NCBI RefSeq assembly: GCF_964213995.1
Contig: NC_135808.1
Location: forward strand, 17,174,001 to 17,238,000
Direction of reading: 5' to 3'
Length of the DNA: 64,000 nt
Source of the DNA: Mustelus asterias
Taxonomy: Eukaryota
Under the pieces are notes generated by a model. The model was not told the origin of the DNA, made no database searches, and saw only the letters and a program-made list of their open reading frames with translations. Of this stretch, positions 5,382 through 61,755 are shown piece after piece. Within the stretch, counting starts at the first letter, position 1. Each line of letters begins with the position of its first letter. The translations under genes were made by a program, and so were the position numbers.

Positions 5382-5408
5382 TACAAGAATTACTATTAAA
5401 AGATACAG
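5382..5408 (+). CDS. micro-exon A, 27 nt, (V)QELLLKDT
   Basis: ttcattcacag|TACAAG...GATACAG|gtacgt. Confidence 0.85.
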
Positions 5409-8400
5409 GTACGTCAACTGAAATATACGACCCCAGTCTTCCAATAGTTCAAGTGGTGATTTTAATTTTCCTTTTCAATTTTGTGGTTGAGGCCGCAAGG
5501 GGAAAATGGGATTTGAGGCATCACGTTTTTAATGGAGTCAACATCTTGCACTGTGATTAGAAAAAACCTATAGGGTAGACTCCTGACGAAGATTAGGGAA
5601 TGTTGGCTCTGTGATTAAAGATCTGAATGGAAAGCATTTCTTTAATTAGTGCGAAGCGATTCATATTGGAGGATTATAGAAACCAGCATTCCACATGGAT
5701 CAGTTCTTTAAATGCTATTATTCATATCTTAAATGAAGCAGTCGAACTTCGGAATAAGTAACGTGATAAAAAGAATTGCAGCTGGTACCAAACTGGCGAT
5801 TAAAGTTAATACTGAAAAGCATTGCAAAATAACGCAAGAAGAGATTAGAAAACTTGTAGCCCTGGCAGCTAAGTAGCTAATGAATTCTGACATAAATTAT
5901 GGTGATCTGATGCAATTCGGTCAGAAAAACAGAAGCATCGCTCACATAATCAAAAACAAGATAAAAGGAGATAGAACAACAAGGGATCCGGACGAAGTGA
6001 AATATCATTAAACTTAGAATCGCAGGCCAGAAAAGTCAATTACAAATGCTAACAATAAAATGGAATTGATTTCTAGTGCATAAATTTCAGGAGTGGATCC
6101 AGATTGTAGAATGTGTAGGATCGAGATCAGGCTATGCTTATAGATCTGTGCACAGATCTGGCCTCCATACTATTGAAAAGGATTTAGAAGCACTGCAGAA
6201 AGTGCGTAAATGATTACTCTGTCACTACCAATACCTAAATATTACAATTACAGAAAATAATTGAAATGATTGGAGATTTTTTTGAGTCTTGCTCGATGTT
6301 GTTGACCATACAAGGGGTTTGACAGGTAGATGTGGAGACTATTTTTCTAATTCTGGGGCGGGGATAAAAATCGCGACCATAAATTTGCTAATACTTTCAG
6401 CTGAGAATTTGTTCTTTTTTGCTGAGGTGAAGGAGAAGGTAAAGCTCTTTAGCAAACGACTTGATTGAGTGAAGCATCACTTTCCAAAGAAATGAGACGA
6501 GCATATGAAAGATAATTAAGTAGAAAGATGTCCTGAAAGGCTAAGACTGCGTAATTGAAATAACAGGAGTCACGGGTGGATTTTAAATATGAGTGCAGGC
6601 TCGTTGAGTTGAATGACTAGTCGAGCTGATGGCACGCCTCTATATTATATATTCTGTTTCATTCCATTGGATTCATAATTGCAGCCACATACAATACTTT
6701 GCAATCAGCATCTGAACAAAGTTGAGACCGCACCTGTACTGTGTGCAGTTTGCGTCTTCTTATCAAAGATACAATGCATTTTCCAGAGAGGGGGTGCAGC
6801 GAAAGTTCACCAGACTGATTCCTGGGAAGACAGGATTGTCGTATTGGGCCAACTGAAACTGAATTCACTTGAATTTAGGAGACTGAGAGAGATCTAATTG
6901 AAACGTATAAAATTCTGACAGGGATGGAAAGATCGGAAGCAGGCCTCTGGCTGGAGGGTCGAGAGCAAGGGATTACAGTATTAGAATACAAGGTAGACCA
7001 TTCAGGATTTAAATGAGGAAACATTTCTTCACTCGGAGGGTGGTGAACCTATGGAATTTTCTACCACAGAAGGTTGTGGAGGCCAAATCACTGAATATAG
7101 TTAAGAAGGAAATAGCTCGATTTCTATACTCTGAAGATGTCAAGGGGTATGAGGAGAGCGCTGATGTGTTGCGTTCGGATGGAAGATCAGCCGTCATCAT
7201 GCTGAATGGTGGAGCAGGCTCAAAGTCCCGAATGGTCTACCCAAGTTCCGTTTGCCTATTTTTCTTCGTAGAAGTTCCAAGGTGGTGCGTTGCAAAGCAA
7301 TGTCCTTTGACCCCAAACTAAGGTCGCATTGCAAATGCACATAAATCAAGAGCCAGGGCAACCTTGACACCGGTGTGAAACGGGGTGAGACTCCTTGGCA
7401 CTTTTGAGCATTTCACTGCATCTGTCACATAGCGAGAACTAATGGGAAATATCGCTCTGCCCATCATGTTCGAGCGGCTAAACTAAAGCGAACTTAGGAG
7501 TTGGATGCAAAGGATCCCAACAGCGTAATTACCATCGTGGCTTCAGATCCCCATTCTGCACTCAGGATTTCCCTTTCATATTCCCAGTGCTGAATGGGCG
7601 TCATATTTCCCGCACAGAAACATAGAACGGGAAATCAAACCATTAAGTGCCAAATATTAAACAAATGACTTGAAAACCTAAAGGTCTGTTCTTGCAGAGA
7701 TATGATCGTGTTCCATCAATGTCCGATTCCAGAATTAGAAAAGTTGACAAAACAAATTGAGGATGCTGGTAAGTCCATTTCTCTTGAAATGTGCTCTGCT
7801 TTAATTACTTAATTATATGAAATATACCAGCATAGACATTGTTCCCATTACCTGTTTACTATTTTTAAGCAAACTGCCCAATGGTTCACTCCCTTCAACT
7901 CAATCCTTCCGTGTCCTCAACAGTAAAATTTCTTGTGCATCAGATTTCTTGGATCAGTTGAAAGCTACTTGACATAAATGCCACTGAACTCCCATCGCTT
8001 ATAGCACATGACTACTAGTAACTACCAACACTTCAATCGCCCTGAACACATTCTTCCATTATTTATATAATAGTGGGTTACCGACTACACTAACTGGACC
8101 TACTAAGCGAGGCAAATGTTATGTAAAAGGATTCTCGCTTTTATTCTAATTATTAATCAACAGACAATATTCTTCTTGAATACTCATTCTTTCTGCACGC
8201 TATACCACTAATTGGGCAAAAAACAACATCACGCATACAATTATTACATTACAATCTGACTTGTATGTCATCCTAACTTCCCCCATCAGTGGGCGTCAGA
8301 TTCCCCTTTCGTCCTGTCTGAAGGTGGATGAGCAAACGCGCGAACCCCAGTAGGAAAACAAACCTATAAATGCTCTCACCTTGCGGTCATAGGACGATAT

Positions 8401-11400
8401 CTATAAAGTGAGAGAATTGTGTACAATTGATGCCATCTAGCTCAGTCATGCCCGTGGGCTACATACTGCCCATTAGGGACCTGAGTGCAGGCCAAGAAAT
8501 ATCTTGTTCACCGTTCTCCACGCGCAGGGTTGCCAGATTCCACTGGTTTCCGGCCGTGTGGTTCGTTCTCCCTACCGATATGACCAATGTGATCAGCAAG
8601 TAAAGAAAGTGCACGTAAAGGAGGTGCACGTGAAGTGAGGTGCGTGTTGATTGCTCACCCTCCGTCCAATCAAAGCTCTAATATTTATTTAGAAAATTTG
8701 AAGTTAATGGTTCCATTAATATATGACTGGATAAGCATTCTCTACCACTCGTTATGAAATGTTTAAGGTGTGGTAAATGTATTCAATCTAATTCATTGGG
8801 ACATTGTTCATGAACATGCCACAGTTCATTGACGTGGAGCAGGGCACTTATGCGGCCACTAATCTAGGTTGCATATCATTGGGCTGAAAGTATAACATTT
8901 CCAGTTTAATCGTTTCGTTGTCCTGATTGACATTGTGGTTGATATGTTCCCATGTTATTGATATCCTTGTTTAAAATATTTTTTGCAGGACTGACTATCA
9001 ATCAGAAGGACAAAGGTAATTAAAACTTGTTTCCAGTAATGAGGTCAACGGTGAACAGTAATCTGGCGGAGGGTTACCTGAACCCACGAGCGGTGTTTGG
9101 CACTTTAAAAGAACACTGTAAGTTTATTGCCCGCGGGGAATATTTCTCGGGGTATTCTTTATAGCTGTCGTAATTCTGGCGAATAGCTGGCGTCAACCAC
9201 ATTCCCAGAGATCCGGGAAACTGAAGAAGTCATTTCTGGTACATTGACATTGACATTGGTCAGTTCTTAAAGCCCGGCAGACACGCCCATGTCCAACCGT
9301 CAATAAAGGGATACTTCACCAACATCGGCAAAGTTGGCCTCCATGCTCTTAGATGTACTAGTGCAAGCCGTGCCTGTGATGTCTTGTTACGAGTAGAAAC
9401 AAAGCGGTACACATGATCAGCTTTATCTTTCACGGTATTGACATGAACATTACAGTCGGGTGGTTCCTCTAACAGAACTTTAAACTGTAATGTCCACGGT
9501 GAACCGTGGTCAACCGTGGTTACAGTCCAACCATGGCCAACAAAGGCGTCAAAAGGTGAGAAAAGAAGCGTAGCGGATAGAAAGTTTCAGGGCAGAGATG
9601 CCAACAGCATAAAAGCAAAGCGAATTCAGGCATTGCCGCTGTAATTAGATGAAAGAGAAGGAAATCTCATAAGGGGGTAGCATGAGGCAAGATCTGATCA
9701 ATGGAGGACGTTACAAACGTAACATAACATTAAGTCAGGTAAACAGAAGGAAAGGTGTTTAACACGATGGGACTCCGGTCATGCAGACTCTATGACAGGC
9801 GGATATTTGTCTGAGCCCATTCGTTGAAGCGGACGATACAATATATTGTTTGGTGGATGGTAAACAAGTAGAGTAGCAAACAGGTTAACGGCCATTATAG
9901 ATTACAGCTAATTTTAGACCGTTTTCTGCAATTTTGGAGGAGAACAAAGAACAATACAGCACAGGAACAGGCCCTTCGGCCCTCCAAGCCCGCGCCGCTC
10001 CCTGGTCCAAACTAGACCATTCTTTTGTATCCCTCCATTCCCATTCCATTCATGTAGCTATCTAGATAAGTCTTAAACGTTCCCAGTGTGTCCGCCTCCA
10101 TCACCTTGCCCGACAGCACATTCCAGGCCCCCACCACCCTCTGTGTAAAATACGTCCTTCTGATATCCGTGTTAAACCTCCCCCCCGGCCCTCACCTTGA
10201 ACCTATAACCCCTCGTGAACGTCACCACCGACCTGGGAAAAAGCTTCCCACCGTTCACCCTATCTATGCCTTTCATAATTTTATACACCTCTATTAGGTC
10301 ACCCCTCATCCTCCGTCTTTCCAGTGAGAACAACCCCAGTTTACCCAATCTCTCCTCATAACTAAGCCCTTCCATACCAGGCAACATCCTGGTGAACCTC
10401 CTCTGCACTCTCGCTAAAGCCTCCACGTCCTTCTGGTAGTGTGGCGACCAGAACTGGGCGCAGTATTCCAAATGCGGCCGAACCAACGTTCTATACAACT
10501 GCAACATCAGACCCCAACTTTTATACTCTATGCCCCGTCCTATAAAGGCAAGCATGTCATATGCCTTCTTCACTACCTTCTCCACCTGTGACGTCACCTT
10601 CAAGGATCTGTGGACTTGCACACACAGGTCCCTCTGCGTATCTACACCCTTTATGGTTCTGCCATTATTCGTATAGCTCCCCCCTACGTTAGTTCTACCA
10701 AAATGCATCACTTCGCATTTATCTGGATTGAACTCCATCTGCCATTTCTTTGCCCAAATTTCCAGCCTATCTATATCCTTCTGTAGCCTCTGACAATGTT
10801 CCTCACTATCTGCAAGTCCAGCCATTTTCGTGTCGTCCGCAAACTTACTGATCACCCCAGTTACACCTTCTTCCAGATCGTTTATATAAATCACAAACAG
10901 CAGAGGTCCCAATACAGAGCCCTGCGGAACACCACTAGTCACAGGCATCCAGCCGGAAAAAGACCCTTCCACTACCACCGTCTGTCTTCTGTGACCAAGC
11001 CAGTTCTCCACCCACCTAGCCACCTCCCCCTTTATCCCATGAGATCCAACCTTTTGCACCAACCTACCATGAGGGACTTTGTCAAACGCTTTACTAAAGT
11101 CCATATAGTCGACATCCACGGCCCTTCCCTCGTCAACCATTCTAGTCACTTCTTCAAAAAACTCCACCAGGTTAGTGAGGCATGACCTCCCTCTCACAAA
11201 ACCATGCTGACTATCGTTAATGAGTTTATTCCTTTCTAAATGCGCATACATCCTATCTCTAAGAATCCTCTCCAACAACTTCTCGGCCACGGACATCAAG
11301 CTCACCAACCTATAATTTCCCGGGTTATCCTTCCCTTCTTAAATAACGGGGCCACATTAGCTATCCTCCAATCCTCTGGGACCTCACCTGTGTCCAGTGA

Positions 11401-14400: not shown

Positions 14401-17400
14401 AACCTATTTGTTATCTCTTCAAAGAACTCTAACAGGTTTGTCAGGCACGACCTCCCCTTACTAAATCCATGCTGACTTGTCTTAATCCGACCCTGCACTT
14501 CCAAGAATTTAGAAATCTCATCCTTAACAGCGATACATCAAGTGTGATAGTCGGAACTCGGGCCAGTTTCGCAGCTTTCATTAATGGCAGGAGCCACACG
14601 TTCTACGCTGTGACTTAATGGAAGTCCTGACACATTTCATTAAGTCCTGCGTCAGGCCTCACCACATATTCGAGCAACTCGGATAACTCGGCATTTGCAC
14701 GTTTTCCCACAACCTACATTTCCTCCTCCTCTTCCTGTACCTCATCCTGCTCTTCCTCCGTGTGCTCTGTCCTAAAGCCTCAGCGCCCTTAGGTCCAGAA
14801 CTCTCCGGTGGATCAAGTTTTTGATTTTGCGGCAGACCACCACGATAAGCGGGATTCTTGAAAGAAAGTACTGCAGGGCTCCATCCGACTGGCCCAGGCA
14901 CCAGAATCACATCGTCAGAGGCCCTAAGATCTGCTCGAAGTTTGTCTGAGTGAGCAGATGGCTTCCGTTGTGTGACATCTGTAACTCTGTCTGATGTTCG
15001 CACAGATGGAGACCAGCGGACATCTATTCAAGAAAGTGTGTCTCCCTCCATTCACTTAGCCGGCTGAATGAACTTGTACATGCAATTATTTGACATTCTT
15101 AATGAGTCAAGCGGGATCTCAGGTTTCACTACCCACCTGCCCTGCTCAAATCCACCAGCATGTGGAGCGGCGTCAGAAAGCCATCTCACCTGCCGACTAT
15201 GCTATTTCCATCCACCAGTTACTAATGCTCCCAACCCCAGTGGGGTTAAAAAATGCAGTTCCCATAACTCAAATATTTAAGCCGAGAATGAAATACAATA
15301 GAATCAATCACAACGAGTCACAGGAAAAGACGAATTCATTGAGAAATAAGTTGTAAAAAAAACTTCATTTGTATTCGAAAGCAAGGGACAATAAATTATT
15401 GTACTCGTTGAGCTGGAACATTATGCAAGAACGGACGAAGGTACTTATAGCAGTGGATTGAGGTAAACGACCTTGCTCAATAAAAATGCATGGCTCAGTT
15501 AAAGGGGGTTGAAGATCATTGCAGAGTGTAGCAAATTCCCATGTTGCACATGGCCTTCTACAGACTCGACAAGCAACTGGGCCGTTTGATCTTCGCATGC
15601 ATTCACTCACTCCACCACCGATGCTCAGTGGCTCCATCTGTCCAATGCACAAGTTCACTTCACTGCAGCAATTCTCCAAACTCCACTCAACATGGTTTAA
15701 AACCGCTACGTGGAAGAAGAAGGTAACAAGCCTCCTGCCACGCCTCATACCGATTTGCCAATATGCCGTTGCTCCTGCACTGCCTTAAGTACCTTCGCTT
15801 TCACCGACGTACTGGAGCTGCCTCCCTGAGATCACCATGGGGTGCCGATAGAACCTGATCTACAGCGGTTCAAGAAAGCTACTCAACACAACCCTTCTCA
15901 AAGGCAATCCAGGGCGGGCACTTCTAGTTGCTTGCCAGTGCGGCTCAAATCCCAAGGGCCAAGTGACGTTTCTGGGTTCATTATACTGATCGAGCTCTGT
16001 GCATGATCCACCAAAATGTAATCTGTAAATAACGAATCGGTAAGGTATTTTACTCATGGAAACATAGGGAAACGATGGAAAACATGACGAAAACATAATA
16101 GCACATGGCAAGTTTGAGAAAGGATATTAACTTTCCGAGTCCAATGTGGCTCCTCTTCAGAACGGGACATCTTCGTTATTGTGGCGCTTTCGTAAGAGCA
16201 TGAGGAATATTTGTCCGTGTTCTAAAGAAGGTTGCAAAGAGGAAGATGAAAAGAATTGAAGTAGTAAACCATGCATTCAAGAGCGGAAGTAGATAGACAT
16301 GGTCTCAAACATTGTCACATATACAAAGATAAAGAAAAGAGATAAAAGAAACCTCCTCACTATATGGAGGCAGTGAGGTGATGCAAGAGTAGTAGGCTGA
16401 TTGACACAGAGAGGAGAACGAAGGGAAGTGTTTCCGAGCTTTACAAAGAATCAGGTGAGAACACATTAAAGCAATACGAGTTACAAAACTATGCATACTA
16501 ATTTCTTCCGTTTTTCCATTTACCCACGACAATGGTATGGAAGGGTTGCCTAATTGATGTTAATGACGATTAACCTGATAATTATAATGATCTGTTACTC
16601 TTGTAGAGATGGAGGATCATAAGAAAACTGATGGTGAGTAATTCTATAATGAGGGATATTTGGATAGAAGGTATTGAGCACTTGTTGTAAGAGCACACTC
16701 CTCTTTTAGATAAGAATGTGTACCAGTAGCCCCAGAACATCGAGCGCTCTTCGACATCTGGTCTTATTTTTACTACGCCTTCCAGGTGCAGTGGTTACTT
16801 TTCTGAACCATTTGTCTAAATTGAAGCCTCTATAATGTCCAATCATATAATAATACTGAAAATGCTGCTATATCTGTTACATGGTATTTTCTTTCTATTT
16901 TAATCAAATGCTTAATTAAAAGTAAGAACTCTTACAACACCAGGTTAAAATCCAAAAGGTTTACCTGGTATCACGAGCTTTCGGAGCACTGCTCTTTCAT
17001 CAGGTGAGTACCTTACCCGCTCAATTGATGGAGCAGCAGCGGTCAGATAACAGATAAACCTGTTGGACTTTAACCTGGTGTTGTGAGACTGTGCCCACCC
17101 CAGTCCAACGCATCTCCACATCTTAATCAAAAGTGACATTTGTTCTCCGTGTGCATTGCTAGCATTATGCTTTGCTTCTCCTTCATTTTACAGACGACAG
17201 AATACAGGAAGCTCGAACAGGTGAATATTCCTTCATTTTTGCTTCATTCGGCGGTCTATTTATCGTTTTCTTTATTTTTATGGAACATGAGAGTCCCTAG
17301 GAAAGTCCTCATTTGATGCCAATCCCTGATTGGGTCTGAACTGAGTAGCTTCCTCGGTTAAAGTCTAATTAAGCGTCAACCACAATGTTGTATGTCTACG

Positions 17401-47400: not shown

Positions 47401-50400
47401 CGCCATTCAATAAGATCATGGCTGATCTTTTCGTGGATTTAGCTCCACTTAGCCGCCTGCTCACCATAACCCTTAATTCCTTAACTGTTCAAAAACGTAT
47501 CTATCCTTGCCTAAAAACCATTCAATGAGGTAGCCTCAACTGCTTCACTGGGCAGGGAATTCCACAGTTTCACAACCCTCTGTGTAAAGAAGTTCCTCCT
47601 CCACTTAGTTCCTTCAAGCGCCAAAGCACGCAGGCAGCTAAGGACAAAAGGCAAATCAGAAAAATCGTGCGGTGCCAACGAAATCAGACATTCCATGCTT
47701 AGCCGCACTATGGATTTCATGCAGCTCTGCAATTAGGTTCCACCAGCGCAGTGGAAACCACAATAAATAACTCCACTCACACAAGATGTGACCACCTTCG
47801 ATTTGGAAGGGGACCGGCAACGATTAAACTGCCTTGCACGGTTGATCAGAGCTCCGTTTCCTCACGTTGATCTGAGCTCCGTAGGCGGCACGGTGGCACA
47901 GTGGTTGGCACTGTTGCCTCACAGCGCCAGGGACCCGAGTTCGATTCCCGGATTGGGTCACTGTCTGTGTGGAGTTTGCATGTTCTCCCCGTCTGTTTCC
48001 TCCGGGTGCTCCGGTTTTTCCCACAGTCCAAAGATGTGCGGGTTAGGTGGATTGGCCATGCTTAATTGCCCCTGAGTGTCAGGGGGATTAGTTATGGCAA
48101 ATGCATAGGGTTATGGGGATAGGGCTTGGGTGGGACCGTGTTTCGTACAGACTCGATGGGCTTAATGGCCTCCTTCTGCACTGTAGGTTTCTATGATTCT
48201 ACGATATGAAGTGGGCTCATGGTTGACAACAAGGTTGATGAGATTAGTGAATTCTTCTATCCTTTCCATCAGCCTTCTGGCGATAAGGCGGAGAAGTGAA
48301 GTTGAGGATTGTCAAATCAGGTCAGTAATGATCCCATTGAATGGCAGAGCAGATGGGATACGACAAATGACCGACTTCTGCGCCTCCGTCGTTTCGTCCT
48401 AATGCTGGGCCAGGGGGTCCAAATATTCCCCAGAGGTCTTGTGCAACTAACCTGTTGGATGAGATGCCTAATCAACTGTGCCACATCTCAGTCCCAGATA
48501 ATGGAACTTATAAATAAAAACTGTACATTGCTGAAGGTCGATGATGAACATGGATGACGATTAATTGGATCTGAAATTAAATCGATTACCATTGGTTGTA
48601 TTTGTCTTTATAGAAACCGAATCTCTGAAAAGAGAGCTAAAGTATGCAAGTAAGGAGAGACAAATTGAGCGGCATGTTTCTTTAAAAGCTGATTGAAGGG
48701 AATGAAATGGAAACGCTTCTGCCTTCTATAAATTATCCCTTACTTCCGTTTTCGCCATGACAATTGTGATCTTCTCACACAATTGAATACTTCCATGTAG
48801 CGTCATGTTACACCCCCATGTCAACGTTATCGATGATTGGGAATGCGAAAAGCTTTCAGCCTCCAATTTCCGTTCACCCTATAAAGCACCGCTCCGAACC
48901 TCAATCCAATTAGGGAGCATGTGCAGAAAAAGCGTTAGCAGCACAATGTCCTCCATCCAATAAAGCTTCGAGTAAAACCATGGGAAAATCATGGTCTGGG
49001 AATTATTTCCCTTCCGTGAATTTACAGTGTGCATTTTCTCCTTCAGCGAGTGTGAAAGGTTATCAACCTTTTTAATCCAAAGTAGCAACGGAATGCAATG
49101 TAAACATAGTTATCGATACTTCATAATTGGCGATGAATATTGAGCATCAGAACATTCTCTCTGGCGGCGGTGTGCCCCGCATGCACAACAGCCATTAATG
49201 GCGATGAATTAAAAAAAACCCAACCGCTGATCTCGGCATTTGCTTCGCACCGCCTCACCTAGAATTATGGTCATTTAAGCCCTTTGGCTTAAACTTCGAA
49301 CGTCTCGGTGGAGGACAAACTCAGGGCTATTGCATATTATTTGATAAACCTGTACGAATGGAAAGCTTCATGGATGAGCCTTGAATGGTATTACGCCATC
49401 AAACTAACTGATCCGAGAGCGGAACTTGTTTCTGACCTTTGCGACTCAATCATCACTCAGTCTCAAAGGGGAGGTAAAATACTGTGACACGTTGCTTTCT
49501 TTCCCAAAAGAGGATGAAATAAAAGCCAAGGCCGAAGGTAGCCCCTTTCAAAATGCTACGCTTTGCGTTAATAATCACGCATAAATTCTCAGTGAATTCT
49601 TGATTGAATTTAAAAGTTGACATGTGCTGTTTATTCACCGAATCGCTATATTGTTTTAGAAAAGGAAAAACATCTCAAAGACGATGGTAAGTATCAAAAC
49701 CAAAAATGACAGTAAAGAGACGGTGAGACTTTCATTGATGCTGAGATGTGTATTTTTCAAATTCACGCGCATGAAGGAGAATTCCAAATGTCCGTGCTTG
49801 CCGGGACAATGCCCATATCAGGGGCAACTCTGGCTTAACATTCCATGCGAGTCTAGACTCTGCTAAAGTCAAACCCTGGGTTTCCTGCCCGACGATTAAT
49901 GTTCAAGTTGTGCGCGCAAACTCTAACCAAATTTGTCCTGCAACTTTTCCATCTCTCCCCCTTCAGGCTCTGACAGAGTAGGGGATGATGCCAGAGAATC
50001 CGAAAATCGCAAATTGTACAGGCTCGCCTGGTTCAAAATGGGTGTATGGATGAAACCAGCAACTGCAAACCAGTGAGTTTAATTTCGGTGGTGGGGAAAC
50101 TGGTGGAAAACAGAACTTGGGACGGAATTAACAGCTACTTGGGGAAAGTACGGATTAATTAAACAAAGCCAACACGAATTTGTTAAATGCAAACTAACTT
50201 GTTTGCGCTTTTAGTGAGGTGAAGGGCCGGGTAAATTAGGGTAATGCAGTCGATGTAGTGCACATGGATTCTTAGTGCTATTTTTATTCAGTACCGCAGG
50301 ATAGACTTGTGAGTAACTTTAAAGCTCATGGAAGAAAACCGATAGAAGCGACATGAGTATGAAATGGAAAGAGAGATAGAAAACAGAGAGTAATGGTAAC

Positions 50401-53400
50401 ACGTTGTTTTCCACACGGAGTGAAAGCTAATAATGGGGTCCCCGAGGGTTCGGTGTTAGGACCCTGTTGCTATTGATTTATTTGAGTTGTCCAGACTTCG
50501 ATGTATAGGAGAAAATTTCAAATTTTGCGCAAGACATGAAACTTAGAAGTAATGCGAACTGCTCTAAGGATCGTTTTAAACTTCAAACTGAATGGATTTG
50601 TTGATGGAATGGACATACGAGTGGCAGGTGAAATTTCTGGCGGACAATTGTGAATTGACGTTCAAGGGGTACTAGGAGCAGAGAGACCAAGGTACATGTG
50701 CACAACTCATTGAAGCTGGGAGGGCAGGTTGTGGGGATGGTTATTAAAGCATCCAAGATACCAGCTGTTGGAGGAGCATGCAGTACCAAGCAAGGAAGTT
50801 ATGAAACTCTACATTCAACATTGGAGTATTGCATCCAGTTCTGGGAACCGCATGTCAGGAAAGGATGCAAAGGCATTAGCGAGTGTGCAGGCAAACTTCG
50901 CGCAAATAGTTCCAGGAATGAAGAACTCCAGATATATAGAAACATTGTTAAAAATATTGTGGCTGCTTTCCTTGTATAAGAGAATAACTGGAGATTCAAT
51001 AGAAGTGTTAAAACTGCTGAGGGGTCTGGGTAGTGTAGCGGGTCCGAAGCTATTCCCATTAGTAGAAGGATATAGCACCAGATTGTGAAGATTGAATGTT
51101 TTGGCAATACAGTGATATTGGGAACCTTCATGCAGCGAGTGGTTACGATGTGGAAAGCATTGCCTGAGAGTGTGGTGGAGGTCGCTTCAATCGTGGCTTT
51201 TGAAATTGATTTGGGCATTTGTTTCAAGATGGACAGTGTTCAGGTCAATAGACAAAAGGCGGGCGAGTGACAATTAGTGAATTGCTGTCGCAGTGACCGA
51301 GCGCTGTATATATATATATATATTCGGATTCAATGATTCTGTGAATAACTTTGCTTTTCTGCATTCCGTAATGTCATAAATTGAAAGGATAATCGGATAT
51401 AATGCTCGGATTTTGAATGCAATGCGTATTCAATTTTTAAGTAGTGAATGAGCATTTTTGTCTGGAATTGACATTAACTTGGACCGCTCGACGTTTGTTC
51501 CGTCCAATCGTTGACCTTAATGCACTTTGTTTCACATTATCAATTTTACAGAGGATCAAATACGTGAGACTCAATTAGGTAAGCTTTTTACCTGCTCACA
51601 ATAGTTCTGTGCTGCATTATGCCGACAGTGTGAGAAACATGTAACTTGTTGTTGAAATTTAGTTCACTTACTGTTTTCGATTTAAGCTTCCTCCAATCAA
51701 TTAGGAGGAATATGATTTCATTGAATTTTAAAATTGATCTTTTTGCATGCGATGACGTTCAGTAAATCCGACAAAATAATTTGTGCCCAGGAGAATTATC
51801 TTTAAATTAGAGCCTAACGTTTCAGACTGCAAAATGTAGCCTAGTTATGAAAGCATACCCGCATTGATATACCAAAGCCTATTGCATTGAATCTTGTGCT
51901 GATCAAATAAAGGTGCAAAAAAGGATACTGATTTAAGTTCTATTTTCTTCATAATAAATGGTGATGGCTGCTGTCAGCTTGATGCAGTGACTCTGCCAGT
52001 CAGCAACCATGAACCCATTTGATTTCATTTAGGACATAGACTCATCGAGGTTTACATCATGGAAACGGGCCCTTCGGCCCAACTTGTCCAAGACGCCCCT
52101 TTTTTTAAACCCCTAAGCTAATCCCAATTGCCTGCAGTTGACCCATATCCCTCTATACACATCTTATCCATGGGCTGAGGGCAACGGAGGCAATTGCCCG
52201 TCCCTTTGGTCAAGTCGAGCAATAACTTGAGCGTGCTGTGATATTTTTACACTTATCGCTTTTGTGCGTTCCGTCTCATGCACATCACATTCAAAGTGAA
52301 ATTTAATTATTTATTGTCACAAGTAGGCTCACATTGAAGTTACTTTGAAAATCACCGAGACGCCACACACCAGCGCCTCTTCAGGTACACTGAGGGAGAA
52401 TTTAGCATGGCCAATGCACCTAACTAGCACGTCTTTCAGACTGTGTGAGGAAACCGGAGCATCTGGAGGAAACCCACACAGACACAGAAAGAACATGTAG
52501 ACTCCACACAGACAGTGACCCAAGCCGAGAATTGAACCCAGGTCCCTGGCACGCTGAGGCAGCAGTGTTAACCACTGTGCCATCACACCGTGCCATGACC
52601 AGAAAGTACTGATGGTCGGAAGGTTGCTTTCCACTTATCTTTTGTTAACGTGGAAGTGATACTTGAAACGAGCAGGAACCAGTTCGAAAATCCACGTGAA
52701 AAACGTCTTCCTGAATATACAGCAAATAAAGAGATAATTAAAAAGACTAAAAAAATGGTTCAGAAACATTAGAAATCTGTAGTAAATGAGACTAACATGA
52801 TGGATAATAACCGAAAATCATAAGAAAACAAAGATATATTGGAACTTGTGAAGCATGGTTGGAGAGAAGTGCTGCCTTCCTGGAGCCATATTTTAAGATT
52901 GAATTACATAGAACATAGAACAGTACAGCACAGAACAGGCCCTTCGGCCCACGATGTTGTGCCGAGCTTTATCTGAAACCAAGATCAAGCTATCCCACTC
53001 CCTATCATCCTGGTGAGCTCCATGTGCCTATCCAATAACCGCTTAAATGTTCCTAAAGTGTCTGACTCCACTATCACTGCAGGCAGTCCATTCCACACCC
53101 CAACCACTCTCTGCGTAAACAACCTACCTCTGATATCCTTCCTGTATCTCCCACCACGAACCCTATAGTTATGCCCCCTCGTAATAGCTCCATCCACCCG
53201 AGGAAATAGTCTTTGAACGTTCACTCTATCTATCCCCTTCATCATTTTATAAACCTCTATTAAGTCTCCCCTCAGCCTCCTCCGCTCCAGAGAGAACAGC
53301 CCTAGCTCCCTCAACCTTTCCTCATAAGACCTGCCCTCCAAACCAGGCAGCATCCTGGTAAATCTCCTCTGCACTTTTTCCAGCGCTTCCACATCCTTCT

Positions 53401-56400
53401 TATAGCGAGGTGACAAGAACTGCACACACTATTCCAAATGTGGTCTCACCAAGGTCCTGTACAGTTGCAGCATAACCCCACGGCTCTTAAACTCCAACCC
53501 CCTGTTAATAAAAGCTAACACACTATAGGCCTTCTTCACAGCTCTATCCACTTGAGTGGCAACCTTTAGAGATCTGTGGATGTGGACCCCAAGATCTCTC
53601 TGTTCCTCCACAGTCTTCAGAACCCTACCTTTGACCCTGTAATCCACATTTAAATTAGTCCTACCAAAATGAATCACCTCACATTTATCAGGGTTAAACT
53701 CCATTTGCCATTTTTCAGCCCAGCTTTGCATCCTATCTATGCCTCTTTGCAGCCTACAACAGCCCTCCACCTCATCCACTACTCCACCAATCTTGGTGTC
53801 ATCAGCAAATTTACTGATCCACCCTTCAGCCCCCTCCTCTAAGCATTAATAAAAATCACAAAGAGCAGAGGACCAAGCACTGATCCCTGCGGCACTCCGC
53901 TAGCAACCTGCCTCCAATCCGAAAATTTTCCATCCACCACCACCCTCTGTCTTCGATCAGACAGCCAGTTACCTATCCAATCGGCCAACTTTCCCTCTAT
54001 CCCACACCTCCTCACTTTCATCATAATAGCATATGGTGAGCAAAATTTGTCTGGTTTAAACTGCAAACCAAAACTGAGAAAATGTGGATACAGTAAGGTG
54101 GAATTAACACAAAATAACCGGAAAATAAACTGAAAGCAGTTGACGGAAAATGGAATATAAGTGTGGTAACGTGGCCCCATTAAGAGATGAGCCTTTGCGG
54201 GCCACGTATCTTCACGTGACCCCGCACGTTAAGAGACGTGCCGGACCCTATGGAACGGAACTTTAGGAAGCCGGGCAAATTGGGAGCAAGCATCTTGGTG
54301 ACTGGAAAGAGTTAAGCTGAAGCCAGGAAGGAGAACAGAGCAGACATGTGCGATGTTCCTGTAAAACCTTTAGAATGTAAGTAGCTATTATAGTTTAATA
54401 AAGTGTGGAGCTGGATCGAGTTGCCTCCAGTTGTTACAATAAGTGCAGAATAAATGGAAAACCTTTGTCACAATAGACTTTTGAAAATCTGCTAGAACAG
54501 GAAGCACGCAGACCCTGATATTCTGGAGTGACATGCAATTGCCTCAGCGAGTGTATCCAAGGCAAAGCGGTTCTTTCAACTGCCATGCAGTCCATTGATG
54601 TAAATGTCATCACCAGAGCGCCATTGCTACAAAGGTAGCATGTGTACCATCTATAACATATAGTACAGCAAGTCAACAAGGCAATATTTCCACAGTGCTT
54701 CCAAAGCCGCAATCTCCACCATCTAAAAGGGCAAAGGAACGTGGGAATATTGCCACCTCCAATTGCCCCTCCAATTTACACGCCATCCCGGCGGGGAAAT
54801 ATATGAGAACTCCTTTGTCGTCGCTGGGTCAAAGGATAAAGAAAGTCCCCCGATAACCACCATTACTTCCTCGAATGAAATTAGGAATGGCCAATACATG
54901 CTGGCCTTACCAGGAACGCTCAAGTCCCATTAAAATATATGTATTTTAAATTTCCTAAGAGGGTCAAGGAGGAATTTTGTCCAATTGCAAAACAATGTCT
55001 CTAAATTCTGCCACCCCTGTGATACTGAACCCCGGGGACATTAATACAAATATTTAAAAATGGCCATTCGTCTCATGGTTTCATGGATCTTCCATTGAAG
55101 TTAGGATGGACGATGGGAATGGGCCGACCTGTTTCAGGTTACTGGATAATAACAATGCAGATTTGCTTCAAAGTAGGACCTTTACAATTGGAGCTCAATC
55201 GTTCAGATGCAAACTACTGAGAAGCAATTTTACCACAGATGACATGAAAAATGTAATCACTCGGAATGAAAATATCTGAAAGCCATCCTCCGAGCGAAGC
55301 ACAGCAGCATTGTGAAAGGCAATTAGATTGCGTGATTGAGAATTCGATGCATTTGTCCAATTTGCTCTCAGGGTGGACAAGTGCTATTGCAGATCGGCGG
55401 TCCTCCTCAATCCTCCGATAATTTGGTGGGTTTTATTCACAAGGGGGCGTCGAAATTAGATTTTAAAACAATGGCAACTCTCAAGTAACAATGTATAACT
55501 GATTCTCTCACACAATAAATGGAATTATCGATTGTAGAGGCATTTGTGCTGTTTAAGGAAACGTCATCAGGTTTGCAGAAATTTATTTTGCAAATATAAT
55601 TTTGCCAGAACGTCAGAAAATAGAAGCCATTCGTAAGAATGTCGGTAAGACCACTCAACTTCACTTATGTGTGTGCAGAATTTCCAAATCTGGGACCCAA
55701 AGGAATCATGGAGTATTGTCAGTCTCCACACCGTCTCACCAACACCGTCCCTCCCTATCCCATTCTCCACCCACCAACCCCTTATCAATTCAGAGAAAGG
55801 CATATGAACAGCACTTTACTCTGCTCCTCCCAGATTGTTGCCAATCTTCTCTGGCATCAAAGGGAAAGAGAGGAAGACCCACAGGGAAATTCCACGCCCA
55901 AAGTTCCAATAGGTAATAAATCACTCAAGAGAGCTGCCTAAGGAAGGAAGATTTACACTGGTCTCAAAAGACAATCTATATCTCCGTGAAAAGTGTAAGA
56001 CTGCGAGTTCTCTGACCCAACATCAACATTCCAGTCATATTCCAGAGTTAGCAGTTCAATGATAGATTTTGGGAACTGAATCTCCAGGGCTGCGAGAGTG
56101 GGCATGATTTCAGCTTTACAAATGCAAACAGGAATAGCGTTTCCTCAGACCAGGACATAAAAAAGACCCATGTGCATGTGCTACTTTCATTTCTGTGCAG
56201 TTCCCACAGCATTTCAACCTACACCTCGCTTACCCCATTCTGCTTATCATTGGCTACACAGAACGGCATGATATAGCGCCGTGATGTTTCTGAATCCATT
56301 GCTCTAACTTACGTCTTTTCATTTTGCAGAGGATTTACTGAAAGGGCAGGATGCAGGTACAATAAATATGAGGTGGGGCATGAGCAGGGACCAAAAAGAA

Positions 56401-59400: not shown

Positions 59401-61755
59401 AATATCCCTCTATACCCCGCAAATGAGCAGGAATATCAGGTGTGCCGATACTTGGATGATTTTAGGACTGGAGGAGATTGTCTGATTGTTCTAAGAAAGA
59501 CGTTGGAGAGATTAAAAGCAAGTATTAACATGTCCTGAAGATTAGTTTGACTGTAAACTTCTCTAGCAGTCCACGAGTACAAGGATGTTGGCGAATGACA
59601 TTTGGTGCAAGTTAGGAGAAGACAACCCGAGTCTTGGATAAGCTCAAATTTAGAGACTGTAGCACGTGGAGGATGTTGACCCGAGTTTACGTGAGAAAAA
59701 AGTTAATTTTGAAGGTTGCAAAAGCATGGGTGCCAGTTCCAACAGTGGAAGAGCTGGGGCAGGGGTAGTGACTGGCGATGTTACAGCAGTGGAAATAAAC
59801 GATCTCATAAGTGACGGTACTGGTACTGGTTTCAAAATCATCTCAGGACCATATTTGACTCTGAGATTTGTGAATAGTCTGCTTCAGCCTCAGCCAAATG
59901 CTGGGGAGAGAGATGGAATCGATGGTAAAGGATCAGAAATTGGTGCAGGAACCAGGAGGAACGAAAGCAATCTTCCCAATATTAAACGCGCAAGGAAGTT
60001 CCTGTCCGTCTAATGCCGGTTAAGGAGTCTGATAATCGTGAGGCATCAGTGGCTCGAGAGAGGTCTTTCCTTGTGGAGAAATTGCACAGCATTTCTGATG
60101 GAAGTCTTCAAGGAGAGGACATTTTTTTGTATTTTAAGAACCATGGATAGATGGGTGGAGCTTCATAAGGAAATATAAAGGATTACAAAACTTTGGCCTA
60201 TTTCTACCTGTGAAGTTGCAATGCGGATCATGTATAGACCTTCCTGATAAATACAGAGAACTGCAAGCACAAAAGTGTTCCACCAGCGCCATACAAGTCA
60301 TTTAAATCAATGCATTTGAATATATCTTACAGTGCGTCGTCATTTCCTTGGCAAGAGAAGACATTGATTCCACAACAGTAAAAGAGACAGTGATCTCGGT
60401 TTTGACAATGAGGATACGATAGATTCGATGGATTGTACTACACTCCCTCTGCCATCCTCAAGTTTTTGTGGTTTCTTTTTCTTAATTGACTCTGGAAAGA
60501 TTGGATCAACGAGGCAGTTATCGGAGAAAACAATTTCTAAAATTAGGCAGGAATTCTTCCTACAGTGGTTGTTACCGCGCTTAGAAGTTGATAGGCATTT
60601 GTAAATGTCAATCAGTATTGTGCGGGAGGTGCAACGACAGAAAGGACCACTCGACCCAGGGAACTCCATTCCTCTGAGAAATATCAATTGGAAAGTCGAG
60701 ATCGATGCACAGAAATGATAATCTGCTGATTTCTGTATCTCGGACATCTCGAGAGTTGCTCCGAGTCAGTAATTTGAAAATCCGAGGAAGCGAAAACACA
60801 CGTCTGCCGGTTAACTTTGTAATTTAACCATGAGTATGTGGGCAACAAGGTAAAGAAGCACACAAAATTACACAGCAAGAGTCCATCATCTACACTCTCA
60901 ACTCAATCTCTTAGCAATAAGCCAACACAAACAAAGTACAGGTTATAAAAACAGATCGAGACAGACAGCACGCACGCACACACGCACACACACACGTGCG
61001 CGCGCGCACACACAACCCCCCACCCCCAGACCCCCACCCCACACACACACACACACGCTGACCCAGAGTGGGAATGTTATTATCGTTTGGGAAATGAAGT
61101 TTCTGAAGCTCCAAATGATTCTGAGCAAACTATATGGACACTCCAGTCCCTGAATCTCTGACATGTTTGCAATCTTTGTCTCTCTATTCATAAATTTATG
61201 CGGAAAGCAATCCATTGTGCAAGCCGCTGTCGTTACATTTTAGTTCATTTTAAAACTTTATTTCCGCTATTGGTTGTGTTCTTCTATTTGACAAAACCTG
61301 ACGTCCACTCAAGCCCCTAAAATACTTGCAGCCCGTCACAGCAACACAAAGAGTGGAGAGAGAATGAGGATGTGTTACTGATCTCACCGTGGGTTCACCA
61401 CATCCATGTTTCAAGATGGCACTGGAGCGTGGCAACTCCTCGCGAGCTATGTGTGGTATGATTTGAATGGATAGCACGCAAAACAATACTTATCGCTGTA
61501 TCTGGGTGCATTTGACAATAATAAATCAAATCAAATCAAAGTGTTAGATGCTTGAAAGAAAAAAAGATAAAATGATTTGCCGTTGCTGATACGTCACTCA
61601 TCTTACGTTGGGAACATTTGCACCATAAATCATTTTGATAGAACAGGAGCAATTAAAGTTTTTTTCAAAACTGTGCCTGCCTTTTTCATTATAATTGCTG
61701 ACTGAACTCGTTATATTTTTCGTAGATAAAGGGGACCTCGCAGCAAAGGAAGACG
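5382..61755 (+). CDS. Partial multi-micro-exon gene encoding a long heptad coiled coil (at least 24 exons, 232 aa); butyrophilin/BG-like architecture, identity unresolved
   Basis: 24 short segments, each with AG before and GT/GC after, lengths all divisible by 3, all open in phase 1, with mutually similar E/K/L/R/D-rich peptides. No 5' or 3' end in the window. Confidence 0.88.
5560..6620 (+). mobile_element. Old degenerate CR1 RT / 3' portion
   Basis: Decayed PQGSVL-, TKLG- and WPPYY-like segments in CR1 order. Confidence 0.6.
6770..7250 (+). mobile_element. CR1 3' fragment
   Basis: SLEFRRLR and [11 protein letters not shown] peptides plus CR1 3' UTR. Confidence 0.85.
7733..7768 (+). CDS. 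micro-exon B, 36 nt, [12 protein letters not shown]
   Basis: gattccag|AATTAG...GATGCTG|gtaagt. Confidence 0.88.
8989..9015 (+). CDS. micro-exon C, 27 nt, GLTINQKDK
   Basis: ttttttgcag|GACTGA...GACAAAG|gtaatt. Confidence 0.87.
9943..11747 (-). mobile_element. Young 5'-truncated CR1 LINE with near-intact RT
   Basis: ORFs 10172..11308 ([26 protein letters not shown]) and 11302..11616; 3' tail at about 9943. Confidence 0.95.
12100..15270. mobile_element. Probable degenerate DNA transposon (PIF/Harbinger-like) interrupted by a CR1
   Basis: GC-richer, coding-like decayed sequence on both sides of the CR1, with an acidic run on the minus strand near 14720-14760; no catalytic motif confirmed. Confidence 0.3.
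13180..14528 (-). mobile_element. Very young 5'-truncated CR1 LINE with an uninterrupted 411-aa RT C-terminal ORF
   Basis: ORF 13269..14504 ([21 protein letters not shown]); 8-nt (CATAAGAC)n terminal repeat at about 13181-13207. Confidence 0.96.
15510..15950 (+). mobile_element. Degenerate 3' end of an L2/CR1-group LINE related to 26499-29968
   Basis: ccaccaccgatgctcagt...cactgcagcaattctccaa parallels 29590-29660. Confidence 0.6.
16607..16633 (+). CDS. micro-exon D, 27 nt, EMEDHKKTD
   Basis: ctcttgtag|AGATGG...ACTGATG|gtgagt. Confidence 0.87.
16921..17122. mobile_element. Penelope-like terminal remnant in inverted arrangement, with a hammerhead-like core
   Basis: Inverted arms acaacaccaggttaaaatccaa / ttggactttaacctggtgttgt; minus strand CTGATGA-aagagcagtgctcc-GAAA. 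Confidence 0.7.
17194..17220 (+). CDS. micro-exon E, 27 nt, DDRIQEART
   Basis: ccttcattttacag|ACGACA...CGAACAG|gtgaat. Confidence 0.87.
17490..17785 (+). mobile_element. Short non-autonomous element sharing both ends with the 26499-29968 LINE
   Basis: taatccagagac...gggttcaaatccc head, acagcaatgtgg middle, aataaattctggcccagccagcgatgccca tail. Confidence 0.75.
18048..18332 (-). mobile_element. HE1-like SINE with an alternative 3' tail
   Basis: HE1 head and core on minus strand; tail aagtttatttattaatgtcacaagtagg. Confidence 0.85.
18731..18766 (+). CDS. micro-exon F, 36 nt, [12 protein letters not shown]
   Basis: ttgtttacag|AACTCC...GATGTCG|gtaagc. Confidence 0.9.
19420..21485 (+). mobile_element. 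Old degenerate CR1 LINE (endonuclease end to 3' UTR)
   Basis: Decayed LDLVL-, WRIANV-, LEHC- and RRLRGD-like segments in colinear order. Confidence 0.65.
21631..21657 (+). CDS. micro-exon G, 27 nt, EQLLRLKDE
   Basis: cttctgtcccag|AGCAAC...GATGAAG|gtaaaa. Confidence 0.9.
22210..22495 (-). mobile_element. HE1-like SINE (alternative tail)
   Basis: acagtgacccc...gaatcgaacctgggtccctggcgctgtg...gtgccaccgt. Confidence 0.8.
22675..22768 (-). mobile_element. Penelope-like terminal fragment
   Basis: acagatgctgtcagacctgctgagattttccagcatt; same family at about 21815-21910, 40650-40745 and 58370-58575. Confidence 0.6.
22770..23205 (+). mobile_element. Degenerate CR1 3' fragment
   Basis: ggagtttggagaataaaagatagacttattga and decayed 3' UTR. 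Confidence 0.55.
23462..23467 (+). CDS. candidate 6-nt micro-exon (EI)
   Basis: ctcttcacgtgcag|AAATCG|gtaagc; frame-preserving phase 1-1, 118 nt upstream of exon H. Confidence 0.35.
23586..23609 (+). CDS. micro-exon H, 24 nt, ELRQLRKQ
   Basis: tttttctatgcag|AGCTAA...AAACAAG|gtagga. Confidence 0.87.
23990..24004 (+). CDS. candidate 15-nt (or 12-nt from 23993) micro-exon (VARIS/ARIS)
   Basis: ctttattctaag|TAG|CTAGGATTTCAG|gtaaat; tandem NAGNAG acceptor, both options frame-preserving. Confidence 0.35.
25892..25912 (+). CDS. micro-exon I, 21 nt, AAGVPSS (hinge-like)
   Basis: cacttttcttgcag|CTGCAG...AGTTCAG|gtgaaa; occupies the same slot as 21-nt exon Q in the next repeat. Confidence 0.7.
26080..26497 (-). 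mobile_element. CR1 3' fragment
   Basis: [16 protein letters not shown] peptide (ORF 26355..26585). Confidence 0.75.
26499..29968 (+). mobile_element. Near full-length degenerate L2/CR1-group LINE with tRNA-like 5' head and a single endonuclease-RT region
   Basis: A-box tggcctagtgg 26509-26519 and B-box gttcgaatcc 26573-26582; [38 protein letters not shown] motifs across frameshifts; aataaa-containing tail. Confidence 0.88.
29232..29590 (+). mobile_element. Full-length young HE1 SINE inserted in the LINE
   Basis: ggggcggcacggtagcacagtggttagcac head, B-box gttcgaatcc, V-core, CR1-type tail gaatggcctctttctgcactgtag; short tctctc flank on both sides. Confidence 0.93.
30655..30690 (+). CDS. micro-exon J, 36 nt, [12 protein letters not shown]
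   Basis: gttggcag|ATTTTG...GATAAAG|gtcagt. Confidence 0.85.
31515..31541 (+). CDS. micro-exon K, 27 nt, DRELRRKDE
   Basis: ctgcctgatag|ATCGGG...GATGAAG|gtagaa. Confidence 0.85.
32100..32468 (+). mobile_element. Short non-autonomous element sharing both ends with the 26499-29968 LINE, with a foreign insert of about 40 nt
   Basis: Same head, middle and tail blocks as 17490-17785. Confidence 0.75.
32658..32693 (+). CDS. micro-exon L, 36 nt, [12 protein letters not shown]
   Basis: gtcattag|AAATAGATTTAC...GATGCCG|gtaagg; a second in-frame AG lies 6 nt downstream. Confidence 0.85.
32880..33662 (+). mobile_element. CR1 3' portion
   Basis: [16 protein letters not shown] and 3' UTR gatcagccatgatcat. 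Confidence 0.85.
34473..34496 (+). CDS. micro-exon M, 24 nt, EKKPARCD
   Basis: ctattatcatag|AAAAGA...TGCGATG|gtaagt. Confidence 0.78.
36048..36074 (+). CDS. candidate micro-exon, 27 nt, DKYVMASRL
   Basis: gctacag|ACAAAT...AGACTGG|gtgtgc; weak donor, but lies where the repeat pattern predicts an E/U-type 27-nt exon. Confidence 0.4.
36978..37308 (-). mobile_element. HE1 SINE
   Basis: Full HE1 head, core and catagaatccctacagt tail on minus strand. Confidence 0.9.
37894..37929 (+). CDS. micro-exon N, 36 nt, [12 protein letters not shown]
   Basis: ttttcctttcag|ACCGAG...GATCTCG|gtgaga. Confidence 0.9.
38116..38142 (+). CDS. micro-exon O, 27 nt, VELLRLKDK (GC donor)
   Basis: tgtttccacag|TGGAAC...GACAAAG|gcaagt; peptide closely matches exon G. 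Confidence 0.87.
38865..39492 (+). mobile_element. Split short element of the 17490/32100 family
   Basis: Head at 38865-39050; remainder (ttagggaaggaa-like block to tail) at 39280-39490. Confidence 0.6.
40845..41520 (-). mobile_element. Degenerate CR1 3' portion
   Basis: catagaatcatag tail, ggccattcggccc, and an [12 protein letters not shown]-like peptide. Confidence 0.7.
41530..41575. repeat. poly-C plus (CA)n microsatellite
   Basis: ccccccccccaaacacacacacacacacac. Confidence 0.85.
42667..42693 (+). CDS. micro-exon P, 27 nt, ELEELRKEG
   Basis: ttttcttcag|AACTCG...GAAGGCA|gtaagt. Confidence 0.87.
43097..43117 (+). CDS. micro-exon Q, 21 nt, SRTTEEC
   Basis: ctgtattcag|GCAGAA...GAATGCG|gtaaga. 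Confidence 0.78.
43230..43256 (+). CDS. micro-exon R, 27 nt, DKELRECKA (GC donor)
   Basis: ttattctttcag|ATAAAG...AAAGCAG|gcacgt; peptide resembles exon K. Confidence 0.8.
43383..43865 (-). mobile_element. Rex1-like LINE 3' end
   Basis: (TTTGA)n tail; reverse complement of about 44930-45372. Confidence 0.8.
44245..45372 (+). mobile_element. Rex1/Babar-like LINE, 5'-truncated, frameshifted RT
   Basis: [42 protein letters not shown]; (AAATC)n tail. Confidence 0.9.
45640..47800 (+). mobile_element. Highly degenerate RTE-clade LINE, interrupted by a CR1 3' end
   Basis: [47 protein letters not shown] remnants in RTE order. Confidence 0.7.
47345..47607 (-). mobile_element. CR1 3' end
   Basis: gaacataagaacataag tail; [17 protein letters not shown]. 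Confidence 0.85.
47883..48200 (+). mobile_element. HE1 SINE
   Basis: ggcggcacggtggcacagtgg head, core, ggcctccttctgcactgtagg tail. Confidence 0.9.
48614..48649 (+). CDS. micro-exon S, 36 nt, [12 protein letters not shown]
   Basis: tttgtctttatag|AAACCG...TATGCAA|gtaagg. Confidence 0.85.
49660..49686 (+). CDS. micro-exon T, 27 nt, KKEKHLKDD
   Basis: ttgttttag|AAAAGG...GACGATG|gtaagt. Confidence 0.87.
49960..51340 (+). mobile_element. Degenerate CR1 RT and 3' portion
   Basis: GVP-GSVLGP remnant, [19 protein letters not shown]. Confidence 0.8.
51552..51578 (+). CDS. micro-exon U, 27 nt, EDQIRETQL
   Basis: aattttacag|AGGATC...CAATTAG|gtaagc. Confidence 0.87.
   Translation, partial: RIKYVRLN
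52290..52592 (-). mobile_element. HE1-like SINE (alternative tail)
   Basis: Same structure as 18048-18332. Confidence 0.82.
52907..54025 (-). mobile_element. Young 5'-truncated CR1 LINE
   Basis: ORFs 52985..53425, 53429..53779 and part of 53839..54180 are consecutive RT segments; catagaacatagaac tail. Confidence 0.95.
54162..54438 (+). mobile_element. Solo LTR (277 bp) with 5-bp target-site duplication
   Basis: TGT...ACA termini, ATAAG at 54157-54161 and 54439-54443, AATAAA at 54397-54402. Confidence 0.8.
54500..54930 (+). mobile_element. Degenerate 3' end of the 26499-family LINE
   Basis: gtgtaccatcta...gtcgctgggtcaaa...ttaggaatggccaatacatgctggcc. Confidence 0.65.
55609..55644 (+). CDS. 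micro-exon V, 36 nt, [12 protein letters not shown]
   Basis: aattttgccag|AACGTC...AATGTCG|gtaaga; peptide matches exon N. Confidence 0.88.
56330..56356 (+). CDS. micro-exon W, 27 nt, EDLLKGQDA
   Basis: cttttcattttgcag|AGGATT...GATGCAG|gtacaa. Confidence 0.87.
56515..57182. mobile_element. Possible solo LTR
   Basis: gttataa start and ttataaca end are inverted; target-site duplication not clear. Confidence 0.35.
57590..59400 (-). mobile_element. Degenerate, internally deleted 26499-family LINE with a Penelope-like insert
   Basis: [20 protein letters not shown] (endonuclease start) and [15 protein letters not shown] / [11 protein letters not shown] (RT). Confidence 0.75.
58370..58575. mobile_element. 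Penelope-like inverted terminal remnant (fold-back)
   Basis: Perfect central palindrome ctttgtcaaagctttgacaaag; arms gcaggtctgacagtatctg / cagatgctgccagac. Confidence 0.7.
59440..60050 (-). mobile_element. Old LINE remnant (L2-like)
   Basis: Low-identity RT C-terminal-like sequence. Confidence 0.35.
60968..61057. repeat. (CA)n/(CG)n/(CACG)n microsatellite
   Basis: cacgcacgcacacacgcacacacacacgtgcgcgcgcgcacacaca...acacacacacacacac. Confidence 0.9.
61726..61755 (+). CDS. micro-exon X, 30 nt, [10 protein letters not shown]
   Basis: atttttcgtag|ATAAAG...GAAGACG|gtaaca. Confidence 0.75.

Follow-up and report, generated by a model that had tools for sequence, protein, structure and literature searches.

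A giant micro-exon gene in the shark Mustelus asterias, predicted to encode a soluble coiled-coil rod with a B30.2 head

The question raised by this locus is whether a string of very short segments with splice consensus on both sides, scattered over 64,000 nt of the Mustelus asterias genome (contig NC_135808.1, referred to as C8; the window is this whole stretch, C8:17,174,001-17,238,000), belongs to a genuine gene, and what kind of protein such a gene would encode. The initial annotation had counted 24 micro-exons (12 of them of 27 nt; 696 nt together) and had proposed a hidden, spliced plus-strand gene of shark origin for a modular coiled coil, being either the tail or stalk of an immune receptor of the butyrophilin/BG type or a new micro-exon gene family.

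Micro-exons of the window and the gene around them

The micro-exons are real because, in a spliced alignment, they tile residues 379-619 of the catshark (Scyliorhinus canicula) protein XP_038671249.1 in order, at equal lengths and without a gap, which was the decisive check. The ungapped identity was 170/240 (71%), against a mean of 28.5 and a maximum of 53 for 2,000 shuffles of the exon order. The hidden gene and its origin in a cartilaginous fish were thereby borne out, and the count was raised by one overlooked exon of 27 nt: 25 symmetric phase-1 micro-exons are found on the plus strand at 5382..61755 (13 of 27, seven of 36, two of 24, two of 21 and one of 30 nt; 723 nt), separated by introns of 112-7,591 nt. 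Read in phase 1, the joined exons give 240 residues free of stops; each of the other two frames is interrupted by 19 stops. The donor is GT in 23 of the 25 exons and GC in two. The coiled coil that had been proposed was confirmed by a hydrophobic period of 3.51.

All window exons are on the plus strand. Both the splice scan and the catshark alignment recovered the 27-nt exons at 5382..5408 (phase-1, QELLLKDT), 16607..16633 (MEDHKKTD), 17194..17220 (DRIQEART), 31515..31541, 38116..38142 (GC donor), 42667..42693, 43230..43256 (GC donor), 49511..49537 (weak splice scores, AAG acceptor), 49660..49686 and 56330..56356, the 36-nt exons at 7733..7768, 18731..18766, 30655..30690, 32658..32693, 37894..37929 and 48614..48649, the 24-nt exon at 23586..23609 and the 30-nt exon at 61726..61755. 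The catshark alignment placed the exons at 51552..51578 (27 nt, 8/8 residues identical to catshark), 55609..55644 (36 nt, 11/11 identical) and 43097..43117 (21 nt, followed by the 112-nt intron). Combined with a comparison of exon blocks it placed the 27-nt exon at 8989..9015, which opens a five-exon block that is repeated downstream, and combined with the alignment of the tandem paralogue (copy A, see below) the 27-nt exon at 21631..21657, the last in the window with a counterpart in that copy. Two putative hinges were located by the catshark alignment and a structural model of the orthologue, in which the helix breaks at both: a 21-nt exon with Pro and Gly at 25892..25912 and a 24-nt exon at 34473..34496. 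One more candidate, at 39608-39631, had fair splice scores, was unused by the orthologue alignment and was dropped.

In a scan of the window by splice sites only, with approximate weight matrices based on textbook frequencies, segments of 27 or 36 nt made up 11 of 52 on the plus strand and 3 of 47 on the minus strand; 40 Markov-4 simulations gave a mean of 2.2 and a maximum of 5. The scan totals were not enriched, the enrichment being confined to the 27- and 36-nt length classes. These strand and simulation controls led us to reject a chance origin, and an origin from tandem repeats was rejected because TRF was blank at the exon sites. Outside the exons the window consists of intron with LINE- and SINE-like repeats, and an Rfam search of the window gave no match. 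Just 3' of the exon at 43230, positions 43360-45375 hold two opposed pieces of one repeat family, whose inverted arms (69-97 nt, 78-87%) enclose a central segment; degraded sequence resembling reverse transcriptase is also present. At 58399-58576 lies a palindromic element, with a relative at 22669-22764; its two arms of 77 nt are 83% complementary and adjoin each other directly.

The initial annotation was right about exons over the span given above and far too modest about the extent of the gene, of which they form a middle part of ~57 kb. The whole gene runs from C8:16,847,101 to 17,298,288 (~451 kb), with the ATG exon ~327 kb upstream of the window. Similar micro-exons carry on beyond the window, over ~320 kb on its upstream and ~55 kb on its downstream side. 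At least 112 micro-exons were mapped through the orthologues (65 of 27, 26 of 36, 13 of 24 and three of 21 nt, and five others), a count taken from the 116 rows of the whole-gene alignment minus the terminal exon and three rows with poor splice scores. A de novo scan added 11 further sites, of which ~4 could be chance as judged from the minus-strand count; the strand control over 450 kb gave 99 matches on the plus and 4 on the minus strand. A candidate at C8:17,293,364 does not map to the orthologue and was left out. Within an intron, C8:16,857,750-16,860,233 is a 2.5-kb repeat with at least 39 copies elsewhere in the genome at 98-99% (among 9,111 candidates) and is a very young retroelement family.

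The product would have ~1,500 residues; the split orthologue models combined give ~1,480. S. canicula XP_038671249.1 (945 aa) was retrieved with the terminal B30.2 domain, where it is 65% identical, and S. canicula XP_038671248.1 and S. torazame XP_072329363.1 span the N-terminal half and map to the exons from C8:16,847,101 on. Because XP_072329363.1 overlaps both split S. canicula models, these represent one gene. No full-length RefSeq model was found among other chondrichthyans, in which the gene is split into two or three models with unrelated names: XP_038671248.1 is called 'CENP-E-like', XP_038671249.1 'zinc-binding protein A33-like' and the Narcine models XP_0697754xx 'golgin A6-like'. 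S. torazame also has XP_072329362.1, and B30.2 ends have been modelled in Chiloscyllium, Hemiscyllium and Cetorhinus. The orthologues keep the same exon order, with 71% identity over the window and 60-65% in the B30.2 domain. A new micro-exon gene family, the second of the two earlier proposals, fits better than a receptor tail, with the reservation that the spliced product is already in RefSeq as split, misnamed automatic models from other sharks. RefSeq relatives have up to nine isoforms, which differ by cassettes of ~6-25 aa, and the micro-exons and isoforms in these automatic models imply transcript support for the splicing of the relatives; in Mustelus asterias itself micro-exon splicing is predicted from the automatic models of the orthologues.

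Neighbouring exons are most often 27-27 (n=35), and 27-36 and 36-27 occur 22 times each; 9 plus 12 residues (27 + 36 nt) make up three heptads. The hydrophobic positions are fixed per class, namely position 4 in the 9-mers and positions 2, 5, 9 and 12 in the 12-mers. Blocks of three to five exons recur along the gene, which would have grown as symmetric phase-1 micro-exons, and entire blocks of them, were duplicated in tandem. In the full-length model of the orthologue, which has low confidence (mean pLDDT 56, pTM 0.24), the long helices are interrupted at exons of 21 and 24 nt, which look like hinges.

The B30.2 head, its relatives and the surrounding locus

The initial annotation had pointed to the downstream flank as a place for a B30.2 exon, and one is there: ~60 kb downstream of the window the phase-1 terminal exon (C8:17,297,768-17,298,288) encodes a SPRY domain (E 5e-10). 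Its best PDB sequence matches are BTN3A1 (E 1.7e-17) and TRIM21, and its AlphaFold model (pLDDT 81) is matched by Foldseek to the B30.2 domains of TRIM7, TRIM21 and BTN3A1 at TM 0.7-0.76. In a tree of 156 B30.2 domains the gene falls in a clade of 16 (support 1.0, stem 1.06) whose named members come from sharks, rays and a chimaera (Scyliorhinus, Chiloscyllium, Hemiscyllium, Cetorhinus, Narcine, Leucoraja and Callorhinchus); the leaves closest to it from outside include Ig, RING and unlabelled proteins, all about equally distant. Arg106 is invariant in all 12 aligned family members. Members with short rods (230-460 aa) have the B30.2 head and a rod motif in common with the giant gene, the motif being noted in members of 372-460 aa. 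The model of the Leucoraja member XP_055510696 starts with a hydrophobic, signal-like stretch, which could be a modelling artefact or mark a secreted member.

Synteny with the MHC, suggested earlier as a check, was found: all 140 MHC class I matches of the genome are on C8, and the closest of their clusters begins at 21.6 Mb, which puts it 4.3 Mb away from the gene. A class II beta search had no match anywhere in the genome and was uninformative. C8 also carries most PRY matches of the genome (well over 100). The region C8:1-43 Mb appears as one very large MHC region, with PRY matches at 1-13, 18.7-21, 25-26 and 31-32 Mb and a dense class I cluster with near-identical repeats at 21.6-24.7 Mb. 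Three ordinary PRY loci were sampled; two showed 96- and 23-nt exons, one of them with a RING exon in view, and a micro-exon array was found at none of the three. A genome search with a BTN-like protein located B30.2 exons only and no Ig exons.

Upstream, at a distance of 32 kb, the gene is bounded by copy A, a tandem paralogue that extends from before C8:16.484 Mb (<16,484,001) to 16,813,053 and has ~60 mapped open micro-exons. It is colinear with the gene under study (copy B) at 65-70%, introns included, and lacks the stretch that would match 17.196-17.287 Mb. We rejected the idea that both copies belong to a single giant gene duplicated internally, because copy A has its own B30.2 end, frameshifted and truncated, and copy B has its own ATG exon. 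Copy A could still encode a headless rod, or could be a young pseudogene. The micro-exons are under constraint: over 45 exon pairs of the two copies dN/dS is 0.38 at a dS of 0.48, a no more than moderate value, obtained from one intact and one decaying copy. Recent 2.1-kb tandem repeats (95-98%) occupy part of a copy A intron (C8:16,575,861-16,587,359). The unplaced scaffold C1489 holds, at 48,357-69,758, the 5' end of a paralogue with an ATG exon and at least five micro-exons, which might supply the 5' end that copy A lacks.

C20 and C8 carry three more clade members of this genome, each preceded by micro-exons. Upstream of the member at C20:14.30 Mb there are ~10 exons of 24, 27 or 36 nt (region C20:14,257,001-14,297,000), and no Ig or RING motif was found within 39 kb. 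Two further close B30.2 matches lie at C20:12.40 and 12.75 Mb.

Possible role of the product

By analogy with the BG zipper protein and enterophilin, we consider the most likely product to be a soluble coiled-coil protein that is hinged, carries a head for ligand binding and serves as a tether. We give an even chance to the fuller reading, in which the gene is intact, belongs to a chondrichthyan family of soluble proteins that combine a coiled coil with B30.2, and encodes a cytosolic, self-associating, hinged rod that acts as tether or scaffold. The ~1,500-residue product would self-associate, probably as a parallel dimer like the tails of butyrophilins and BG, into a hinged rod of up to ~190 nm (~1,300 residues at 0.15 nm each), with paired B30.2 heads at one end and the conserved N-terminal Tyr motif EYINI at the other. 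The YxN of this motif presumably is a consensus docking site for SH2 domains, as predicted from the motif. The heads might bind a protein ligand with avidity while the rod reaches the cytoskeleton or a trafficking membrane. Paralogues and species may tune its length through the number of exons they have, and in-frame exon skipping may tune it further; single skips of 9 or 12 residues keep the reading frame and shift the heptad register, which weakens the idea of simple length tuning.

A rather unlikely alternative is an innate-immune sensor or decoy without RING, in which the head would recognise a pathogen or stress ligand and the protein would signal through the Tyr motif or titrate neighbouring TRIMs. 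The position of the gene among the PRY matches of C8 and relative to the first class I cluster agrees with it, as do a recent duplication after which copy A lost its head, typical of birth-and-death behaviour, and the codons of the Tyr motif, which are invariant between paralogues. Against it, the B30.2 domain is single-copy in the genome (next paralogue 35%) and keeps 60-65% identity across shark orders, unlike an expanding family of restriction factors, and sensing does not need a rod of 1,300 residues. His351, given as the phosphoantigen residue of BTN3A1 in PMC7348870, aligns to a Thr (Thr40 of the domain), so that, judged from the alignment, phosphoantigen sensing of the BTN3A1 type is unlikely.

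We are more doubtful still of a lineage-specific structural fibre, for instance of germ cells, cilia or a specialised epithelium, with the B30.2 domain as assembly head and the MHC linkage reflecting ancestry only. The extreme length of the rod and its block repeats are in line with such a fibre, and the N-terminal 200 aa retrieved only generic coiled-coil look-alikes and clusters from the ESM Atlas. The fragmentary RefSeq models would be expected for a gene of narrow or low expression. The short members of the family speak against a fibre, because they keep the head and the rod motif and length is therefore not essential to the family.

That the rod is the cytoplasmic tail of a butyrophilin- or BG-like receptor, with Ig and TM exons further upstream or missed by the models, was the first of the earlier proposals and is now improbable. 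Heptads from micro-exons followed by B30.2 are the layout of butyrophilin tails (PMC8813856), and BTN3A1 is the best PDB sequence match. Since the first coding exon is also symmetric in phase 1, and its frame stays open ahead of the ATG, a distant upstream coding exon may formally exist. The ATG has a strong context, and in the C1489 paralogue the sequence is completely identical for ~40 nt from the ATG and differs in the preceding 14 nt. A conserved donor lies 1.8 kb upstream and follows an in-frame stop, which is what a 5'UTR exon should show. A non-coding upstream exon is predicted near C8:16,845,337, and the non-coding block C8:16,845,021-16,845,482, 70% conserved between paralogues, contains a splice donor and a conserved GGAA/ETS-like motif; the block is likely to comprise the promoter and the 5'UTR exon.

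The receptor reading failed at the very point where the butyrophilin/BG link was to be checked, the upstream side. The 33 kb that separate copy A from the first coding exon contain 134 plus-strand ORFs of ≥50 aa, none of which matches an Ig, RING or B-box family; 132 ORFs upstream in the C1489 paralogue likewise gave no Ig or RING motif. The N-terminal S. canicula model starts at the same Met and has neither signal peptide nor TM nor a Pfam match; the S. torazame model begins 22 residues earlier and apparently reads through the acceptor. A RING or B-box Pfam match was found neither upstream nor in orthologues or family members, and motif and hydropathy screens for Ig, TM and RING gave 0/16 in the clade, many members of which are partial models. 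Over 450 kb there was no credible TM exon, the hits being dinucleotide-repeat artefacts near the 5' end and three weak intronic candidates that are absent from the orthologue proteins. We also rejected a type II membrane protein whose TM exon would follow that of the Tyr motif, since no credible TM was found and the orthologues run straight into the rod. Two ray-finned fish proteins do have this type II layout (N-terminal Tyr motifs, TM, C-terminal B30.2); one is annotated 'TRIM39-like' in gar, and isoforms differ by 9 aa.

A decaying or untranscribed locus, whose exons persist through slow shark evolution, is very improbable: the broken head of copy A and the likeness of the introns of both copies, which implies that neutral retention is slow to fade, would agree with it. 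Against it, the ATG exon and the micro-exons of copy B are all open, its B30.2 is complete and has a stop codon with AATAAA sites beyond it, the window keeps its identity to catshark, and codon positions 1 and 2 are more conserved than position 3 (0.84, 0.82 and 0.73).

Returning to the soluble tether, a wider proposal can be made tentatively. The family might be a third ancient MHC-linked B30.2 branch beside the TRIMs and butyrophilins, confined to cartilaginous fishes (chimaera and elasmobranchs) and made of soluble B30.2-tipped tethers. Their reach (~60 to 1,300 rod residues) would depend on how many exons of 9 and 12 residues each contains, with splicing for adjustment, as in a molecular ruler, and they might have a conserved ligand pocket of their own (the invariant Arg106 and a W-x4-W-N motif) and an N-terminal phosphotyrosine docking site.

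Comparison with known systems

As far as searched the gene is undescribed, and it is built from known parts at an extreme scale. The full-text literature that we searched contained no description of the family; most subscription journals fall outside its scope, so absence is unproven. The main text of a bamboo-shark single-cell study mentions btnl2 alone (PMC11372145), and the literature used for comparison also takes in PMC12841164. An MHC-linked chondrichthyan family has been hidden under names such as TRIM39-like, A33-like, golgin-like, CENP-E-like and BTN-like, and counts of shark TRIM or butyrophilin genes that rely on annotation names therefore include non-members. The gene offers a natural test case for the splicing of long runs of micro-exons and for the growth of coiled coils by exon duplication.

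Chicken BG genes have 13-36 one-heptad exons of 21 or 24 nt per gene, with IgV and TM and without B30.2 (PMC4046983, PMC5043582, PMC8813856), and the zipper protein, a BG tail in soluble form, controls how actin and myosin interact (PMC4046983). Shared with them are the long coiled coil from a string of micro-exons, expansion and contraction by exon blocks, tandem paralogues, MHC linkage and, for BG, the existence of a soluble tail form. The shark gene differs in using 27- and 36-nt exons, in its terminal B30.2 and in that no IgV or TM was found. Its 9 + 12-residue unit is a different way of building a heptad rod from exons, and at least 112 coding exons of ≤42 nt in one gene are several times the number described for chicken BG tails.

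With the butyrophilins (BTN/BTNL) the gene shares heptads followed by a terminal B30.2 exon, the MHC linkage and the best PDB match, BTN3A1. It is unlike them in that no signal peptide, IgV, IgC or TM was found, and in having a rod of ~1,300 aa as against a few heptads, a Thr for His351 and a B30.2 domain on its own long branch. If the family were a sister of the BTN/BG tails, it would bear on the origin of the micro-exon tail of those receptors. Like the TRIM proteins with PRY-SPRY (TRIM21, TRIM7, TRIM39), it combines a coiled coil with B30.2 in the same chromosome region and has them among its top Foldseek matches; unlike in them, no RING or B-box was found.

The guinea-pig enterophilins are soluble mammalian proteins, several-fold shorter, with a long leucine zipper and B30.2. 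Their layout is matched in the absence of TM and RING, the long heptad rod and the B30.2 head; this is a match of architecture, and the likeness is probably convergent. Secondary sources report that enterophilin-1 binds SNX1 (PMC13749957, PMC9205943). On their defining features the gene stands outside BTN, BG and TRIM, and by analogy its product would work like a BG or butyrophilin tail freed of its receptor, or like an enterophilin.
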